This document shows positions 29,876 through 37,831 of a stretch of DNA of 64,000 nucleotides, piece after piece. This DNA is from Planctomycetaceae bacterium (GTDB lineage: Bacteria; Planctomycetota; Planctomycetia; Planctomycetales; Planctomycetaceae): the NCBI GenBank assembly GCA_041749515.1, contig JBGTBF010000043.1, positions 85,526 to 149,525 of the forward strand, in the 5' to 3' direction. Numbering within the stretch: position 1 is the stretch's first letter; each line of letters starts with the position of its first letter. The position numbers were made by a program, and so were the translations under genes. The notes below the pieces were generated by a model. The model was not told the origin of the DNA. It made no database searches and was given only the letters and a program-made list of their open reading frames with translations.

Positions 29876-32800
29876 ATGTGGCGTCGAGAAGTAATGTGGA
29901 TGTTGGTTTTTCTGTTACTGCCGACGATGGTCCGCGCGGACGCAATCACGGATTACAATCTGGTCGTGACATTCTACAAACAGCAAAAGTGGAAGCTCGC
30001 CGGTGAGACCGCAGAGGACTTCATCAAGAAGTATCCCACTCATGAAAAAGCTCCACTTGCAAGATTGTACTGGGGACAGGCTCTGGTGCATCTGCAAGAC
30101 TTTAATACCGCCCGAAATGAGTTTCGGCTGTTTGTCAAAAGTTCTCCGGAGCATCCAGATCGTCCGCTGGGTATGTACCGGATCGGCGAATGCAGCTACT
30201 TCTTAAACGACTTTACCAGCGCCGAACAGGAACTGATCCTGTTTCTGAACCAGAACCCCAAACACGAATTGACGGAGTGGGGGTATCTGTATTTGGGCGA
30301 GACGCAGTTTCGCCTGAACAAGTTCGCGGAGTCTGCGAAAACGTTCGACCAGTATCGGACGGCCTTTCCCGCAGGTCGACTCATCGACGATGTTGAGTTT
30401 GGACTGGCCCGGGCGGAAGAAGCACTCGGGAATTCTGCGAAGGCGATTGAGCTGTATCAGAACGTTGCGAATCGCACGAGCAGCCCACGCGCTCCAGAGG
30501 CACAGTTCAACATTGGTTCCCGGTATTTTGATGAAAAGCAATATCAACAGGCTGCAACCGCGTTTGAAACCGTCGCACAGAAATTTGCCGAACATGCTCT
30601 TGCTCCGCTCGCTTTTTTAAATGCAGGTTATGCTCGCTATTATTTACAGGAATATCAGCCTGCAATTGCCTTGTTCGAACAAGCATCCAAAGACCCGCAG
30701 CAACAAGAGACCGCGCGCTACTGGGTGGGCTTGAGTCAAAAGTCTATCGGAGAATTTGAGGCGGCGAGCAACACATTTGAAACTTCGTTAAGGGAAAAAC
30801 CGCAGCAAACGCTCGCTGAGAATTTGTACTTTCAATGGGGCGATGCGGAACTTCGCAAGCGTGACTTTAAGCGGGCGATTCAGATCTTCAATCAGACCGT
30901 TGAGAAATGGCCGCAGGGAGACTTCGCCGATGATGCGTTGCATTCGGCATGTGAGGCTGCATTTCAATTACAGGACTACAAACTTGCAGAACAAATCCAC
31001 CAGAAGTTTCAGCAGGACTATGCAACCAGCGGTTTGAGACTGTTGCAGGATTTGCTTTATGGACGTTTGCTCGTTGCCGAGGGTGATGCTCTTGAAGACA
31101 AATCTGAGGCGCTGAAAAAGTTCGAACTGGCTGCCACTTTATTGAAAGAAGTCGCGGAGAAATCGACCGTCGATCTCACGTCTAACGAGGCTCGTTATCA
31201 ACTCGCCCGCAGTTACGAGCGTATGGAAAAGGATGCAGAGGTTGTCGCCACTTTGGAAGTGTTGCTCACCAGGCAAGAGCTCATGACCCCTCAGGCAATT
31301 CAAGATTCTTTGCTGCTCCAGGCCAATTCGCTGTTGAGATTGAAAGAGTATCCAAAAGCAATTATCAGTTATCAGAAATTTATTGACAGCGCCGGTTCCC
31401 CCGAAGAGAAACTGCAAGGCCTGGCAGGGATTGCAAGTGCTCAGATTGCAACGCAAGACTGGGAGAGTTTGAAGCAATCGCTCACCGAACTTGCAAGTTC
31501 TGATCCCGCAGATACGCAACTCAGCCGAATAGCGGTCGCAGCAGGTGATGCCGCTTTTGATGCTGGGTTATGGGTTCCCTCGGCAGAGTTCTTTCAGCAG
31601 GTCGTCAAACTCGGTGAAGCGGGCAGATACTATATTGTAGCGCTCTCGGGGCTGGGACACGCACAGTATGAGCAGGCACAATTCAAAGCGGCAGCGGAAT
31701 CGTTCGAGCAACTGACCAAGATCAATGTCGAAGATAAGGTATTGCTCTCACATGCAGTTTACATGGTAGGTTTGTCCCAGAGACGTGCAGAGCAAATCGA
31801 GACTGCGCTCGTGTGGTATCAACGGGGGGCGAAGGACTTTTCGATTGCCAACAAAGAGGCTCCCACAGAAACCGATCTTAAGATCGGCCTGAATGCATAT
31901 CGTTCTGCAAAAGGGGGAGCACGCACTGCTCGCGAAGTCGACAAGACGGAGCTCGCCGATCAACTCTACTCTGCTGCTTACGGGGAACTCAAGAAGCAAC
32001 CGCTCGCCGAACAAACGGAACTTGATCTGCTTATCAATGAATGGGCTGACCTGAGCTACAACGCAGAGAACTACGCACGCTCTGACGAGTTATATGCCCT
32101 GCTTGTCAAAGAGCGTCCGGAAAGTGATCTTGCTGACGATGCCCAGTTAATCCTGACCGAGAGTTTGCGATATCAAGGCAACCTGGAAGAAGCCCTCGCG
32201 AAGTTTCAACAACTTGCCGAAGCGAACACCTCTGATGATTTCGTCAAGCAACGCTCGCTGGTCCACCTGCTGGATTTAGCGGCAGAGAAGTCAGACTGGC
32301 AAAGCGTTTTAAGCTCTGCGGAAAAGTTGGAAGAGGCATTCCCAAACAATAACCATCAAACATATATCAAGTACCGCATGGGTGAAGCGCAGTTGCAATC
32401 GAAGAATTACCCCAAGGCGATCGAGATTTTAGAGGCACTTAAAGTCGAACTTTCCGCAGATCTTCTGAATGCCCCCCCCTGGTGGCCAGAAGCCTGGTTA
32501 CTTTTGGGGGAAGCACTTTTTCGCACAAAGAACTACTCCGAACTCGACAAAGTGGTTGCTGAACTCAAAGAAAAAGCGGCCGCATCCCCTCTTATTTATC
32601 GGGCAGATGCATTGGTCGGGCAAAGCTTTGAAAGTCAGGCAAAGTTCGAAGAGGCCCGCGAAGCGTATTTGAGAGTGGTAGACTCAAAAGACGGAAATGG
32701 AACAGAAACCGCCGCAGAATGTCAATTTCGCATTGCAGAATCTTATCTAAAGCAGAAGAATTACCAAACAGCTTACAAAGAGTACTACAAAGTTTACGCT

Positions 32801-33004
32801 GGTTATGAATCAGAGACATACGAACCCGCTGCGCTCTATCAAGCAGGTCGTTGTGATTCCTCTCTGAAAAACTGGCGAGGTGCGGTATTATCCTACAAAA
32901 CACTTATCGACGAATTCCCAAACAGTGAGTATGTTGAAAAAGCTGAGCAGGAAATCGCAGAGATTCAGAAGGCGTTTCCAGAATTAAAAGAGACATTGCA
33001 GTAG
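29876..33004 (+). CDS. Large tetratricopeptide-repeat (TPR) protein with signal peptide, 1042 aa
   Basis: Over 20 TPR-like helical hairpins (…AKAIELYQNVA…, …YYLQEYQPAIALFEQA…). Signal peptide MWMLVFLLLPTMVRA. First gene of an apparent operon. Confidence 0.8.
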   Translation: MWRREVMWMLVFLLLPTMVRADAITDYNLVVTFYKQQKWKLAGETAEDFIKKYPTHEKAPLARLYWGQALVHLQDFNTARNEFRLFVKSSPEHPDRPLGMYRIGECSYFLNDFTSAEQELILFLNQNPKHELTEWGYLYLGETQFRLNKFAESAKTFDQYRTAFPAGRLIDDVEFGLARAEEALGNSAKAIELYQNVANRTSSPRAPEAQFNIGSRYFDEKQYQQAATAFETVAQKFAEHALAPLAFLNAGYARYYLQEYQPAIALFEQASKDPQQQETARYWVGLSQKSIGEFEAASNTFETSLREKPQQTLAENLYFQWGDAELRKRDFKRAIQIFNQTVEKWPQGDFADDALHSACEAAFQLQDYKLAEQIHQKFQQDYATSGLRLLQDLLYGRLLVAEGDALEDKSEALKKFELAATLLKEVAEKSTVDLTSNEARYQLARSYERMEKDAEVVATLEVLLTRQELMTPQAIQDSLLLQANSLLRLKEYPKAIISYQKFIDSAGSPEEKLQGLAGIASAQIATQDWESLKQSLTELASSDPADTQLSRIAVAAGDAAFDAGLWVPSAEFFQQVVKLGEAGRYYIVALSGLGHAQYEQAQFKAAAESFEQLTKINVEDKVLLSHAVYMVGLSQRRAEQIETALVWYQRGAKDFSIANKEAPTETDLKIGLNAYRSAKGGARTAREVDKTELADQLYSAAYGELKKQPLAEQTELDLLINEWADLSYNAENYARSDELYALLVKERPESDLADDAQLILTESLRYQGNLEEALAKFQQLAEANTSDDFVKQRSLVHLLDLAAEKSDWQSVLSSAEKLEEAFPNNNHQTYIKYRMGEAQLQSKNYPKAIEILEALKVELSADLLNAPPWWPEAWLLLGEALFRTKNYSELDKVVAELKEKAAASPLIYRADALVGQSFESQAKFEEAREAYLRVVDSKDGNGTETAAECQFRIAESYLKQKNYQTAYKEYYKVYAGYESETYEPAALYQAGRCDSSLKNWRGAVLSYKTLIDEFPNSEYVEKAEQEIAEIQKAFPELKETLQ

Positions 33005-33028
33005 ACCTTTCAAAGAAAGAAGACGACG

Positions 33029-33964
33029 GTGAAGGATCAATCGAGTTTCTTGTGCAAGGCAAGGTTGCCAAAGCGAAAAGTTGTCTCAGCGCTGCTGACG
33101 CTGATCGTGCTTGCGATTTCAACAAGTCGCAGCAGCGCTCAGGAGATCGACCTGGGGATTCCCTCTCCAGCCCCTGTCGGCGTGCCTGAAGGTCTCCCTG
33201 TTCAGCCGCCCACAGCACTCGAAACGCCTGCAACCGAAGAGGATTCTATCTCTTCCGGGATTGCCGGATTGCTCCCCACAAATATCCTGCAACTTGCAAA
33301 ATCGCTGAACTACTGGATCATCCCATTTGGTCTTGCGACGTTTATTGCCCTGTGGTTTACCACTGAGAGAATTGTCGTTCTGCGTCGTGGTCGCGTGATT
33401 CCCCGACCGTTCGTTCGAAAGCTTTTACAGCTTCTCGAAGATGGCGAAATTGACCGCGAAGAAGCGATTCAGGTTTGCGAAGAAAACAACAGTCCCGTCG
33501 CACATGTGTTTGCCCACGGGGTACGCAAATGGGGGAAACCAAGCGTCGAAGTCGAACAGGCCATCATTGACGGTGGAGAGCGTCAGATCAGCGTATTACG
33601 CAAGCACCTGCGGGTCATCAACGGTGTCGCCACAGTCACACCGCTGATTGGGTTATTGGGTACGGTTTGGGGAATGCTGGAAGCGTTTAACAAAATTGCT
33701 GAAGCAGGTGCGAAGGGAAATACGGATCAACTCGCTTCAGGGATCGCACTGGCACTGGTCACCACAGCTGCCGGTCTGGTAATCGCCATCCCGTCGCTGA
33801 TTGCCTACATGTACTTATCCGGACGTGTTGATTCGCTCGTTATGGAAATGGACGATTTAGCCCAGAAGGTGATCCAAAATATTTCTGCTGAGGGACTCTC
33901 CGAACGAACGACCCGCCCTCGAAAGATTCCTAAAGAAAACCCTTCCTCGAAAAAAGCGGTGTAA
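33029..33964 (+). CDS. MotA/TolQ/ExbB proton-channel family protein
   Basis: Three TM helices with the family's conserved core (…[18 protein letters not shown]…[32 protein letters not shown]). N-terminal signal-peptide-like segment. 25 bp downstream of the TPR gene. Confidence 0.85.
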
Positions 33965-34083
33965 TTACCGACCAGAACTCATCCGGTTTCTGAATAGATT
34001 TGTCTGCAAAGCCTCATCTTTCCAAAATCTGGTGCCAAAAGTCAGGCTTGTAAAAGTCAGACTTACAAAAAGAATTTCTTTCG

Positions 34084-35151
34084 ATGCGATTTCAAAAAAA
34101 CATCTCTCCGCCCCCTTATCTAAATCGACGCGATCAGTACCGAATGCTGATGATGGTGGGACTGTTGATGCTGATTGTCATCGGGATCAAATACACCGCA
34201 GACCCCGCTAACTGGCAATGGTTTTTTAATCTCGATAAACAACCTGCACAAACCGAGATGGAGTTGAAAGAACTCAAACTTGACGATATCGATTTTCAGA
34301 TCAAGCCGGAAAGGAACGGCTCTCTGCCCGCTGAGACTTTCATTGCACTCGAATCAGAGACCACTCCGCAAGTAGTCTTTGGCTCTAAAAATGAGATTGG
34401 TCAATTCCCCAAAGAACTTCTGTCCGACATCAAAGACCAACAGCTCAAACTTCTTCGTCGCGAGCAACCCGCACTCGAAGCGATTGTCCAGCACCTTAAA
34501 TCCACCTCGCAACAAGAATTGGAAGATGCTGCAAACAGATCGGTCGGTTTTCGCGTCATAAATGTCGAACCAGATGCTTATCGCGGTATGCTGATAAGAA
34601 TTGAAGGGACTCTTCGTAACTTTACTTCCTTTCCGTTCGGCGACAGTCAGACAACTGCTGACGATCTGTATCAGGGCTGGGTCTTTACGGACGATTCTGG
34701 CAGCAAACCATGGATGATTCTCTGCACCGAAAAACCGACCGGATTGGAACTGCAAGAGCGAATGGAAGTTCCTATGACCGTCTCCGGTTACTTCTTCAAG
34801 CGCTACGGGTATCAGTCCGAAGGAGGCATGAACGTTGCTCCGTTGCTGATTGCAAAGTCAATCTCTCTACAACCGATTCGGCAAGCGCGACATGTGCGCA
34901 ACGAAAACATCAGCCTGTATGTGATCTGGGTACTGGGCATAATTTCGCTCCTCTTCGCTCTCATGATTTGGAGATTCTACGCCAGCGATAAAAAATACGA
35001 GAACAGCCACCTCGCTCAGATTGCCGAGTCGAGAAGAGACGCAGACCCCGAAGCGATCAAGCAACTCAACCTGTTGCCAACCATCGATCAACAGGGATTG
35101 TTCAAACATATTCGTGAATCGGACAACAGCGAAGAAAAGCTTAACCCGTAG
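34084..35151 (+). CDS. Hypothetical 2-TM membrane protein (N- and C-terminal anchors, about 250-aa periplasmic domain)
   Basis: Helices at MLMMVGLLMLIVIGI and LYVIWVLGIISLLFALMIW. No ExbD/TolR or TonB signature. Confidence 0.6.
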   Translation: MRFQKNISPPPYLNRRDQYRMLMMVGLLMLIVIGIKYTADPANWQWFFNLDKQPAQTEMELKELKLDDIDFQIKPERNGSLPAETFIALESETTPQVVFGSKNEIGQFPKELLSDIKDQQLKLLRREQPALEAIVQHLKSTSQQELEDAANRSVGFRVINVEPDAYRGMLIRIEGTLRNFTSFPFGDSQTTADDLYQGWVFTDDSGSKPWMILCTEKPTGLELQERMEVPMTVSGYFFKRYGYQSEGGMNVAPLLIAKSISLQPIRQARHVRNENISLYVIWVLGIISLLFALMIWRFYASDKKYENSHLAQIAESRRDADPEAIKQLNLLPTIDQQGLFKHIRESDNSEEKLNP

Positions 35152-35556
35152 TGCCTTGTCTGGTTTTGTTGATTGGGGGACAGCTCGACGAAATGCGTGA
35201 TGTTGTCGTTTAATCCACGTCCACTCCACTTTACAAAAAAGGTAAAGGAATTCCGCGTTCCCCCCGATCTGAAAGCAGGAGCGATTTCAGCAGTCGCCAC
35301 GCGCTCGCCTTTGACGTGTTTGCCCGGAGATGAAGATCAACTCTTTTTGAACTCAAACTCAGGAGTTTTCATCGCTTACGAAAATGTGAAATATCGGTTT
35401 GAACTGACCTCAGTTGTTTTACGTTTGGTCTCCGGGAGGGTAGGATTTGAGAATTCACAGAGATGTCTTGATAAAACACAAAATTGCAGCCGACGGTTCC
35501 CTTCACGGAAACCTGCATCACAGTTATTAAACCTCACATTCACGAAAGGCATAGTC

Positions 35557-36678
35557 ATGGGACTCTTCGATAAACTACGCGCAGAATTGATCGACATCAT
35601 CGAGTGGGTCGATGATTCCAGACACACGATTGCCTGGCGATTTCCTCGCTATCATAACGAAATTAAGAACGGTGCGCAGTTGATCGTGCGGCCCGGACAG
35701 ATGGCGGTATTTGTGCATCGCGGTCAACTTGCCGATGTGTTTGAGCCGGGACACTATGATGTTAAAACAGACAACCTGCCAATTCTCAGCACAATTGCAG
35801 GCTGGAAATATGGTTTCAACAGCCCCTTCAAAGCAGAAGTCTATTTCGTAAATACCCGGCAAATCACCGACCTGAAATGGGGAACTCCCAATCCGGTGAT
35901 GCTTCGTGATGCAGACTTTGGTCCGATTCGACTACGGGCCTTCGGCACGTATTCCATGAAAGCGGTCGAACCGAAAGCCTTGTTGACCGAACTCATTGGC
36001 ACAGACTCGGAGTTTGAAGTCGACGAGATTAACGAACTCATGCGCGCGATCATTGCCTCTGCGTTTGCTGATCTTCTGGGGAGTTCACAGATCAGTGCCC
36101 TCGACCTGGCTGCCAATTATCGAGAGCTTTCAGAAAAACTCCGAGAGATGGTGATCGAACGAGTCGATGATGAGTACGGCCTTGACATCCCACAGTTCCA
36201 TATCGTCAATGTTTCGTTCCCTGAAGAGGTCGAAAAAGCACTTGATACCCGCTCCAGCATGGGAGTGATTGGAGACCTGAATCAGTTCCAGCAATTCCAG
36301 ATGGGAAAAGCGATGATGGCGGCTGCCGAAAACCAATCCGGTGGCGGAGCAGCTGAAGGCATGGGCCTTGGTATGGGATTCGCCATGGCCAACCGCATGG
36401 CAACCGGCATGGGTGGGCCAATGGGCGGCATGTCGGCCCCAATGGGACCACCTCCACTTCCAATGGAAATGTGGCACGTGGCAACTGGCGGAAAATCCGA
36501 TGGCCCCTATACAATTCAGCAGATGGCGCAGGGAGTTCAAAACGGACAATTACAAAAAGGGACGCTCGTCTGGAGCCAAGCTATCAGCAACTGGACCCCC
36601 GTCGAACAAGTCCCGCAACTTGCTCCTCTCTTCAACGCTGTACCACCATCACCGCCACCGATCCCGCCGGTTGATTAA
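35557..36678 (+). CDS. SPFH/band-7 family protein (Band_7_1/YdjI-like) with Gly/Met-rich linker and C-terminal GYF-like DUF4339 domain
   Basis: RBS aaagg before the ATG at 35557. N-terminus MGLFDKLRAELIDIIEWVDD. Linker GMGLGMGFAMANRMATGMGGPMGGM. C-terminus GPYTIQQMAQGVQNGQLQKGTLVWSQAISNWTPVEQVPQL. The ORF track's extended 5' start (35173) is unlikely. Confidence 0.75.
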   Translation: MGLFDKLRAELIDIIEWVDDSRHTIAWRFPRYHNEIKNGAQLIVRPGQMAVFVHRGQLADVFEPGHYDVKTDNLPILSTIAGWKYGFNSPFKAEVYFVNTRQITDLKWGTPNPVMLRDADFGPIRLRAFGTYSMKAVEPKALLTELIGTDSEFEVDEINELMRAIIASAFADLLGSSQISALDLAANYRELSEKLREMVIERVDDEYGLDIPQFHIVNVSFPEEVEKALDTRSSMGVIGDLNQFQQFQMGKAMMAAAENQSGGGAAEGMGLGMGFAMANRMATGMGGPMGGMSAPMGPPPLPMEMWHVATGGKSDGPYTIQQMAQGVQNGQLQKGTLVWSQAISNWTPVEQVPQLAPLFNAVPPSPPPIPPVD

Positions 36679-36805: not shown

Positions 36806-37831
36806 CTACTTTTCATTTAGGGGAACGTCCCGATATGCCTGATGACAGTTCATGCAGTTCTGACCGATCTGAGCAGTGCGAGTGCTGAGAGCTTCCGGGG
36901 GATAAGCTTGTTCCGTATCAGCTCCGAATTTTTTCAAATCGTCTTCCAGTTTTAGAGCGGCTATCTCGGACTCCTGTAACCACTGACGAAACTTCTCGGG
37001 TTGTTGCCGTACTTCTTCTGTTCTCAACATTTCAGTGAAATGCTCTCGCAGCATCAGCACTTCGTGAACCGGCACAATGTCAGGATGCGTTGGCGGCGTC
37101 TTCCAGCCAGCTTCTTCGATCAACTTCAGATGTTCGTATGCATGACCAATCGCCACCATCGCTTCGGCCATGGGAGGAACAGGAGCCGATTCGGGAAACT
37201 CGACTTGAAGTTCTTCAAGCAATGCGATGTCCAGCGGATGAGCCGTTTGAGCAGAAGCGAACAACCCTCGGTAATTCGGACTTGTCCCAGCAATCTTAAG
37301 AATTTGCATCCCCTGATGGGCTGGAATGAATCCTGCCGACACACAGGCCACGCTTGCAGCGACTGGGCTGCGATGCTTGCCGTGGTGGCAATGGATATAG
37401 ATTGGTCCTTCAAGTTCACGTACTGCTTTGGCCAGTTCTTTGGCGCGCTGTTCGGGAATTCCATCGTATCCGTGTGGCAGATGCACATATCGTAACCCGT
37501 ATTTTCTCGCCATCTCAACGTTCGGTCTCATTCCGTCAACGCTGATAATTGTTTTGATATTGAGATCCTTAAGTTCCTGGAAAGCTGCTTCTCCTTGGGG
37601 AAGACCACCAGAAATCACTTTCGCATGCACCTGCACAGGATTCGGCAGATGTTGGGATATTAACTTATGCGGGCCAGCAAATTCAGTAAGATTCGCTGCT
37701 CTTGTAGAAGCCGTTGCAGTAGAACTAGAACCAACATCACTCTCGACTGAGCTGGCAGGGGCAGCAGGCGATCCGTGATAGCATCCAAACGTTGCGACAA
37801 CGGCGAACGTGAGAGTGAGTCTTCTCAGCAT
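36806..37831 (-). CDS. Secreted dual-specificity/tyrosine-phosphatase-like protein (CX5R) fused to a C-terminal helical domain ending in a CxxCH heme-binding motif (class II cytochrome c'-like)
   Basis: Signal peptide MLRRLTLTFAVVATFGC. P-loop HCHHGKHRS. Last 16 residues are CMNCHQAYRDVPLNEK, preceded by about 120 aa of predicted helix. Confidence 0.7.
   Translation of the reverse strand: MLRRLTLTFAVVATFGCYHGSPAAPASSVESDVGSSSTATASTRAANLTEFAGPHKLISQHLPNPVQVHAKVISGGLPQGEAAFQELKDLNIKTIISVDGMRPNVEMARKYGLRYVHLPHGYDGIPEQRAKELAKAVRELEGPIYIHCHHGKHRSPVAASVACVSAGFIPAHQGMQILKIAGTSPNYRGLFASAQTAHPLDIALLEELQVEFPESAPVPPMAEAMVAIGHAYEHLKLIEEAGWKTPPTHPDIVPVHEVLMLREHFTEMLRTEEVRQQPEKFRQWLQESEIAALKLEDDLKKFGADTEQAYPPEALSTRTAQIGQNCMNCHQAYRDVPLNEK

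Follow-up and report, generated by a model that had tools for sequence, protein, structure and literature searches.

The DNA analyzed here, a stretch of 64,000 nucleotides (nt) from a Planctomycetaceae bacterium (GenBank assembly GCA_041749515.1, contig JBGTBF010000043.1, positions 85,526 to 149,525 of the forward strand; hereafter the window), carries four neighboring genes on the plus strand, here named A to D, of which only the first two belong together. Gene A (29876-33004, +) encodes a predicted secreted, periplasmic giant protein of 1042 amino acids (aa) built of tetratricopeptide repeats (TPR), and gene B (33029-33964, +, GTG start) a 311-aa proton-channel subunit of the ExbB/TolQ family. 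We consider it rather probable that both genes represent the TPR-ExbB front half of a system that is Tol/Ton-like and driven by protons, and that its ExbD-type partner is encoded elsewhere in the genome. A preliminary description of the sequence had taken all four genes together as one energized envelope module. This module was not supported because genes C and D are not co-conserved with gene B, and because an ExbD gene adjoins the TPR-ExbB pair in related planctomycete lineages, two outcomes that the preliminary description itself had named in advance as speaking against the module.

Genes A and B as a conserved unit

For gene B, a set of orthologues from 82 Planctomycetaceae loci was compiled, comprising 80 loci from a genome scan with gene B and two complete genomes. 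The upstream gene could be assessed in 78 of these loci, the contigs of the other four being too short, and in 59 of the 78 a TPR giant is located directly 5′ of the gene B orthologue. Also, all-against-all clustering of 875 neighboring open reading frames (ORFs; distance ≤9 kb) identified the TPR giant as the sole recurrent neighbor (56 loci), with every other family being present in at most 10 loci. Genes A and B are one conserved two-gene unit, and the coupling of the channel protein to the TPR giant, as suggested in the preliminary description, was supported.

Membrane segments were called by simple hydropathy throughout. In gene A, a single N-terminal hydrophobic segment resembling a signal peptide and no further membrane helix was predicted. 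Many TPR families matched the protein, spread from about residue 25 to residue 1017 and accompanied by BamD-like matches, and TIGR02795 was matched with 218 bits in the form of six YbgF/CpoB-like stretches.

Absence of ExbD and TolR from the vicinity of gene B

[quoted passage not shown] Using phmmer with the E. coli proteins ExbD, TolR, TolA, Pal and TolB as queries, none of them was found in the 64-kb window. Among the 7188 ORFs of the window and 85 loci, no ExbD, TolR, Pal or TolB was detected, and the only TolA hit, in a short ORF of a single locus, was weak (E 5e-4). With four planctomycete ExbD proteins as queries, blastp and tblastn remained negative both for the window and for the 1.35 Mb around the 82 orthologues, and these 1.35 Mb contain no X (the transducer-like protein described below) and no TatA either, so that TatA is not found near the orphan gene B. 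A scan for the motif of the ExbD trans-pore helix, in which E. coli ExbD and TolR as well as a planctomycete Asp-bearing helix (locus L005) were recovered as controls, gave no match in the window and none adjoining any gene B orthologue, and scanning the window for a TolA-like SxxxH anchor gave none. The lack of an adjacent ExbD gene is real and family-wide and not a chance feature of one genome. Profile, phmmer, BLAST and motif searches here all agreed with the preliminary description, which had noted the lack of an ExbD/TolR/MotB-type gene next to gene B.

The complete cluster in other Planctomycetota

A search of 50%-identity representatives yielded 213 relatives of gene B at E ≤1e-30. The ExbD-linked relatives from outside the family are 36-61% identical to gene B overall. 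Six representatives (P0162, P0164, P0165, P0173, P0180 and P0191; 39-50% identical to gene B) are located in loci L088, L090-L092, L096 and L097, and a further full cluster with the ExbD homologue P0389 is present in three near-identical loci (L093-L095), with an ExbB 42% identical to gene B. In all these loci, ExbB is directly followed by ExbD (PF02472, 139-149 aa), and wherever the contig is long enough, ExbD is followed by protein X (640-790 aa) and then by TatA/B genes. A TPR gene directly 5′ of ExbB was found in all of them except L088, with the copy in L097 being a cut, unscanned ORF. The TPR giant of L090 could be aligned over its full length with the giants of the Planctomycetaceae (E 1e-47 to 1e-56).

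The same order was observed in metagenomes. From a scan seeded with X, the best 80 loci (L098-L177) were analyzed, and a locus counted as assessable if its upstream sequence reached 1.7 kb or more. In 49 of 49 such loci, ExbB and ExbD immediately precede X; eleven apparent exceptions turned out to be artefacts of partial high-scoring segment pairs, with ExbB and ExbD located upstream in every case. The ExbB proteins of the metagenome loci are 40-61% identical to gene B of the window, usually with a TPR giant upstream and often with TatA downstream.

Members of the X family have about 590-790 aa (L090:7795-9918, L091:7533-9557, L092:7347-9713, L088:7311-9239, L093:8531-10531, and L098-L177). 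They carry two N-terminal helices, the second of which reads 'CVxLSxxAHxLL' and contains the pattern S-x-x-x-H in 57 of 59 X ORFs, comparable to 'ISAVLHVIL' of TolA, followed by a variable Pro-rich linker of 250-400 aa and a conserved domain of 330 aa. Because this domain has weak similarity to SQHop_cyclase_C/N and Pec_lyase, the sequence indicates an alpha/alpha toroid as head of X. No solved sequence relative of X was obtained. By its sequence features, X looks like a transducer of the TolA/TonB type, and no description of an X-type cluster was found in the searchable literature. The greater novelty lies in this cluster with X, located outside the window; the window itself differs from the known kind of system in gene order.

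Two further features of these clusters were recorded. One or two TatA/B/E genes often trail the TPR-ExbB-ExbD-X genes (L093:10857-11432, L091:9693-10290, L092:9884-10518, and many of L098-L177). Just 5′ of the TPR giant, there is often a gene for a conserved protein without Pfam match of about 194 aa (L088:5415-5999; L036, L056, L062, L064, L081 and many of L098-L177), which in clusters without TPR giant is found just 5′ of ExbB; the window has no copy of it.

Channel identity and residue conservation of gene B

Gene B matched the MotA_ExbB family (PF01618) at 1e-30 with 106.5 bits (cut-off 22.9) and is a member of it. Its nearest solved relatives are TolQ (5.5e-15) and then ExbB, and its scores stay far below the equivalog cut-offs of NCBIfam for both TolQ (TIGR02796, 91.5 vs 221) and ExbB (TIGR02797, 61.7 vs 206). 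The protein consists of an N-terminal signal-like segment, the channel helices and a Pro-rich periplasmic tail, and it ends about 50 aa past the third transmembrane helix (TM3). An N-terminal extension with a signal peptide is known from some ExbB proteins, e.g. that of Serratia.

Across the Planctomycetaceae, the gene B orthologues share 49-79% identity. The residues equivalent to P141, G144, T148, G151, T181, G184 and P190 of ExbB are invariant in 80 of 80 orthologues. In gene B, the pore threonines are T212 and T246, equivalent to T148/T181 of ExbB and T145/T178 of TolQ, positions by which the Asp of ExbD/TolR is bound in the solved structures (D23 of TolR in the case of TolQ; PMC12583513). 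In a neighbor-joining tree, which is rough and was calculated without bootstrap, the 80 orphan gene B sequences form one clade and the ExbD-linked sequences lie outside, and this monophyly fits a single unlinking event. Within positions 91-290, conservation of 90% or more was counted for 96 columns of the orphans, as compared to 79 in 41 linked sequences. The orphan clade keeps the pore motifs PLxGLLGTVxGM and GIxxALxTTxxGLxxAIP, and the motifs of its TM2 and TM3 do not differ from those of the linked sequences. As judged from this conservation, the orphan clade shows no relaxation of constraint and looks functional.

Differences are found at two sites. At the channel's periplasmic entrance, the glutamate of ExbB (E176) and TolQ (E173) is replaced by Leu241 in gene B. 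Over the 80 orphan sequences, this position is occupied by L (69), M (5), V (4) or I (1), and over 150 representatives of the subfamily by E (41), Q (22), V (18), L (14) and others. The absent glutamate was considered as a mark of a non-canonical channel and rejected because the site is variable across the whole subfamily, including ExbD-linked members. The second site is TM1. In the linked clade, G93, G94 and S104 are invariant and C103 is present in 98% of the sequences, whereas the orphan clade has L93, A103, T or S at position 104, by which the hydroxyl group is retained, and an invariant W109. In the TolQRA complex, S18 and H22 of TolA form hydrogen bonds with TM1 of TolQ (PMC12583513). 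Protein X has an invariant Cys within its SxxxH helix. The clade-specific residues in TM1 (93-109) may stem from co-evolution at the contact of motor and transducer.

Proposed mechanism and alternative readings

From the sequence data, we infer a role of genes A and B in force transduction across the envelope. In the proposed mechanism, gene A would serve as a periplasmic TPR scaffold, and gene B would supply the ExbB/TolQ-type subunit, which forms the pentamer in a 5:2 motor driven by protons. The ancestral cluster, intact in other Planctomycetota, would have comprised the TPR giant, ExbB, ExbD, X and often TatA, and the linkage of ExbB to ExbD and X would have been broken at the root of the Planctomycetaceae. 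Because the pore is invariant, gene B presumably still needs an Asp-bearing central helix, and it would assemble around a trans-pore helix of the ExbD type, the gene of which would lie elsewhere in the genome. A transducer spanning the periplasm would then be powered by protons that flow through the threonine ring, and the TPR giant would be an adaptor in the periplasm or on the outer-membrane side, comparable to the combination of TolQRA with CpoB. The missing ExbD is most likely a change in gene order and not a new mechanism, and the result for the window is mostly corrective, with two of the four genes being bystanders.

Several observations weigh against an ExbD-type partner encoded elsewhere. 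In the search of about 10 kb on each side of gene B (1.35 Mb in total), neither ExbD nor X was located in any Planctomycetaceae genome, and the top 120 matches of an ExbD profile search all came from other lineages. Among the best 80 loci of the metagenome scan with X, there was no ExbD-X locus without ExbB, which counts neither for nor against an ExbD-X operon relocated within the Planctomycetaceae. The TPR giant is not adjacent to gene B in 19 of the 78 assessable loci. The entrance glutamate is lacking in gene B, and exchange of this residue for Ala inactivates TolQ of E. coli (E173A; PMC12583513), the site being variable subfamily-wide, linked members included. Finally, TM1 of the orphan clade shows clade-specific changes as compared to the linked sequences (G93 to L, C103 to A and V109 to W), which may reflect a different, replaced or lost transducer. 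An unlinked ExbD working with gene B, as considered in the preliminary description, stays the best reading.

The TM1 changes lead to a different possibility, in which the Planctomycetaceae lost the ancestral ExbD and X and the motor was rewired, with gene B having a different partner or none and the full system being a Tol-like system found throughout the Planctomycetota. Such rewiring is hinted at because the transducer-facing TM1 is remodeled beside an unchanged pore; taken as a whole, we regard it as a rather doubtful possibility.

As one alternative, gene B could pair with an unlinked protein other than ExbD, having an Asp-bearing trans-pore helix and another periplasmic domain, after loss of the ancestral ExbD and X. 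Partners of this kind exist. In locus L005, which belongs to a Thalassoglobus metagenome-assembled genome, another ExbB paralogue is followed by a 249-aa protein with the sequence 'LTPLLDLLLIVIF' and without ExbD Pfam domain, and tolQ genes without tolR that are paired with vWA proteins bearing a trans-pore helix have been published (PMC12204202). The conserved signature of the orphan TM1 (L93, W109), unlike that of the linked clade, would also agree with such a partner. However, the pore-lining residues are the same as in the ExbD-linked relatives, the L005 protein is already adjoined by an ExbB-like gene of its own, and none of the 82 loci has a candidate next to gene B, making this alternative unlikely. 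Apart from gene B, the L005 genes deserve mention. The ExbB-like paralogue (3-587) and the gene of the 249-aa protein (584-1333) overlap by 4 nt and are followed by a gene for a 168-aa protein (1609-2115). The paralogue and the 249-aa protein with its Asp helix may constitute another non-canonical 5:2 motor.

Gene B could also be a true orphan, with A and B acting without any ExbD-like helix, e.g. as an ExbD-independent channel or as a scaffold. The absence of ExbD, X and TatA from the surroundings of all orthologues, the retention of the A-B pair alone and the lack of a glutamate at the periplasmic entrance would be in line with this. Against it stand the threonine ring and the Gly/Pro residues of the pore, which are invariant in 80 of 80 sequences and have as their sole known role the holding of the Asp of the central helix, and a degree of conservation exceeding that of the linked clade. 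Moreover, we know of no ExbD-free function in the MotA/TolQ/ExbB family, and this explanation appears quite unlikely.

Genes C and D as unrelated neighbors

Gene C (34084-35151, +) encodes a bitopic protein of 355 aa with two predicted membrane helices and a middle domain with OB fold, for which no Pfam or NCBIfam match was obtained. Gene D (35557-36678, +) encodes a soluble SPFH protein, the linker of which is rich in Gly and Met and the tail of which is of the GYF_2 type. All four ORFs were recovered as co-directional genes on the plus strand, as described before; the intergenic distances are 24 nt between A and B, which had been given as 25 bp, and, in agreement with the earlier values of 119 and about 400 bp, 119 nt between B and C and 405 nt between C and D.

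The preliminary description had called for a synteny check of the four-gene string across relatives. In tblastn searches, homologues of gene C or D were found within 10 kb of the gene B orthologue in 0 of 82 Planctomycetaceae loci, so that the string is not co-conserved and only the A-B pair remains of it. In one metagenome-assembled genome, a gene C homologue and a gene B orthologue share a contig, at a distance of about 15 kb. The gene C family has 31 homologues, and all those with a source name are from Planctomycetaceae. Their context is unrelated and not conserved, with Opp permease genes or a rhodanese gene preceding some of them and unrelated genes surrounding others. Homologues of gene D are absent from three loci bearing gene C homologues. 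Genes C and D are unrelated neighbors and lie outside the system.

Within the gene C family, the middle domain and the second membrane helix are conserved across the 31 members. The cytoplasmic sequence 'PPYLNRRDQYR' is conserved, with the juxtamembrane 'NRxDQxR' being invariant, and 'PxxWxW' follows TM1. TM1 itself is poorly conserved and contains no acidic residue, i.e. no Asp. The suggestion that the 355-aa protein substitutes for ExbD had to be abandoned since, besides this TM1, the fold of its outer domain is OB and not TolR/ExbD-like. An actual four-gene module, in which gene C would replace ExbD and the SPFH-GYF protein would organize a membrane microdomain around the motor, has the common gene direction and the two short first gaps in its favor, but is refuted by the absence of C and D homologues near gene B and, in view also of the other contexts of gene C homologues, the features of the gene C TM1 and outer domain, and the 405-nt gap ahead of gene D, extremely improbable.

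For gene D, Band_7_1 (PF13421) was matched at 3.5e-100 with 334 bits (cut-off 24) and GYF_2 at 3e-15 with 56 bits; no membrane helix was predicted. For the GYF_2 tail, a match to the GYF structure of GltJ from Myxococcus (7z3c, 4e-5) was also obtained, the NCBIfam match to GltJ being at domain level only. The ORF holding gene D extends from 35173 to 36678 and starts with TTG. We placed the start at 35557, where an ATG is present (MGLFDK...), because the Band_7_1 match begins at ORF residue 155. Gene D most likely spans 35557-36678, and the preceding 128 codons of the ORF are probably non-coding. The resulting 405-nt stretch 5′ of the SPFH gene (35152-35556) is formally within the TTG-started ORF and ahead of the domain match. 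Rfam, terminator and promoter scans of 28.4-38.6 kb, including this stretch, gave nothing beyond chance.

Comparison with known systems

Among the known systems, Tol together with CpoB is alike in several respects. Gene B is closest to the solved TolQ chains and keeps the equivalents of T145 and T178, gene A is built of CpoB/YbgF-type TPR units (the six stretches of TIGR02795), and the cluster of the relatives adds one TolR/ExbD gene and a TolA-like protein with SxxxH anchor and Pro-rich linker. In contrast, gene A is about four times as long as CpoB (1042 vs 263 aa) and located upstream, and by its size it falls outside the CpoB format, a protein of about 260 aa that trimerizes by an N-terminal coiled coil. 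The head of X would be an alpha/alpha toroid instead of the C-terminal domain of TolA, E173 of TolQ is replaced by Leu in gene B, and in the window TolR and the transducer are unlinked. Membership in the Tol-Pal system proper fails because TolR, TolB and Pal are lacking from the window and the loci according to the phmmer searches. Pal has been reported to be absent from Planctomycetes (PMC12204202 supplement).

A cluster of the Planctomycetes-Verrucomicrobia-Chlamydiae group with the genes for a TPR protein, a tolQ-like protein, two tolR-like proteins and a vWA transducer (PMC12204202) also has the TPR gene directly 5′ of the tolQ-like gene, and its transducer combines a His helix of the TonB/TolA type with a non-TonB head. 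Unlike this cluster, the relatives of the window locus have a single ExbD and not a heterologous tolR-like pair, the head of X is SQHop_cyclase-like and not vWA, and the window contains neither ExbD nor a transducer. With Ton, gene B shares the Pfam family and the pore architecture with three transmembrane helices, and X the SxxxH anchor; however, no TonB C-terminal domain is present among the Pfam-scanned window proteins, and there is no TonB-dependent receptor nearby. Zorya, which the preliminary description had already set aside, has only the generic MotA/ExbB-type channel core in common with gene B. It was rejected, the PADLOC match to ZorA reaching 19 bits over about 97 of 505 profile positions in the generic MotA region, with the long C-terminal tail as well as ZorB, ZorC and ZorD lacking.

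To our knowledge, planctomycetes have no recognizable Tol-Pal system and no FtsZ. A strongly conserved TolQ-like channel coupled with a CpoB-like TPR giant is a concrete candidate for energizing outer-membrane maintenance or division in these bacteria. In most of the phylum, ExbD and a TolA-like transducer, whose head domain is new, accompany the channel and the giant. The gene order in the Planctomycetaceae shows that the TPR-ExbB half can be inherited alone, which is of relevance for the annotation of 'orphan' ExbB genes.

Other features of the window

The remainder of the window comprises ordinary planctomycete housekeeping genes, such as those for transhydrogenase, anthranilate synthase, DeaD, LeuA, MutS and Tex, as well as PSCyt/PSD1 and DUF1559 proteins. 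Judged by its protein hits, the organism belongs to the Planctomycetaceae, close to Thalassoglobus and Planctomicrobium. On the minus strand, 36806-37831 encodes a secreted 341-aa protein with weak matches to dual-specificity/tyrosine phosphatases and the HCxxGxxR-like sequence 'HCHHGKHRS', which is combined with a C-terminal cytochrome c′-like stretch containing CxxCH, an unusual combination of domains.

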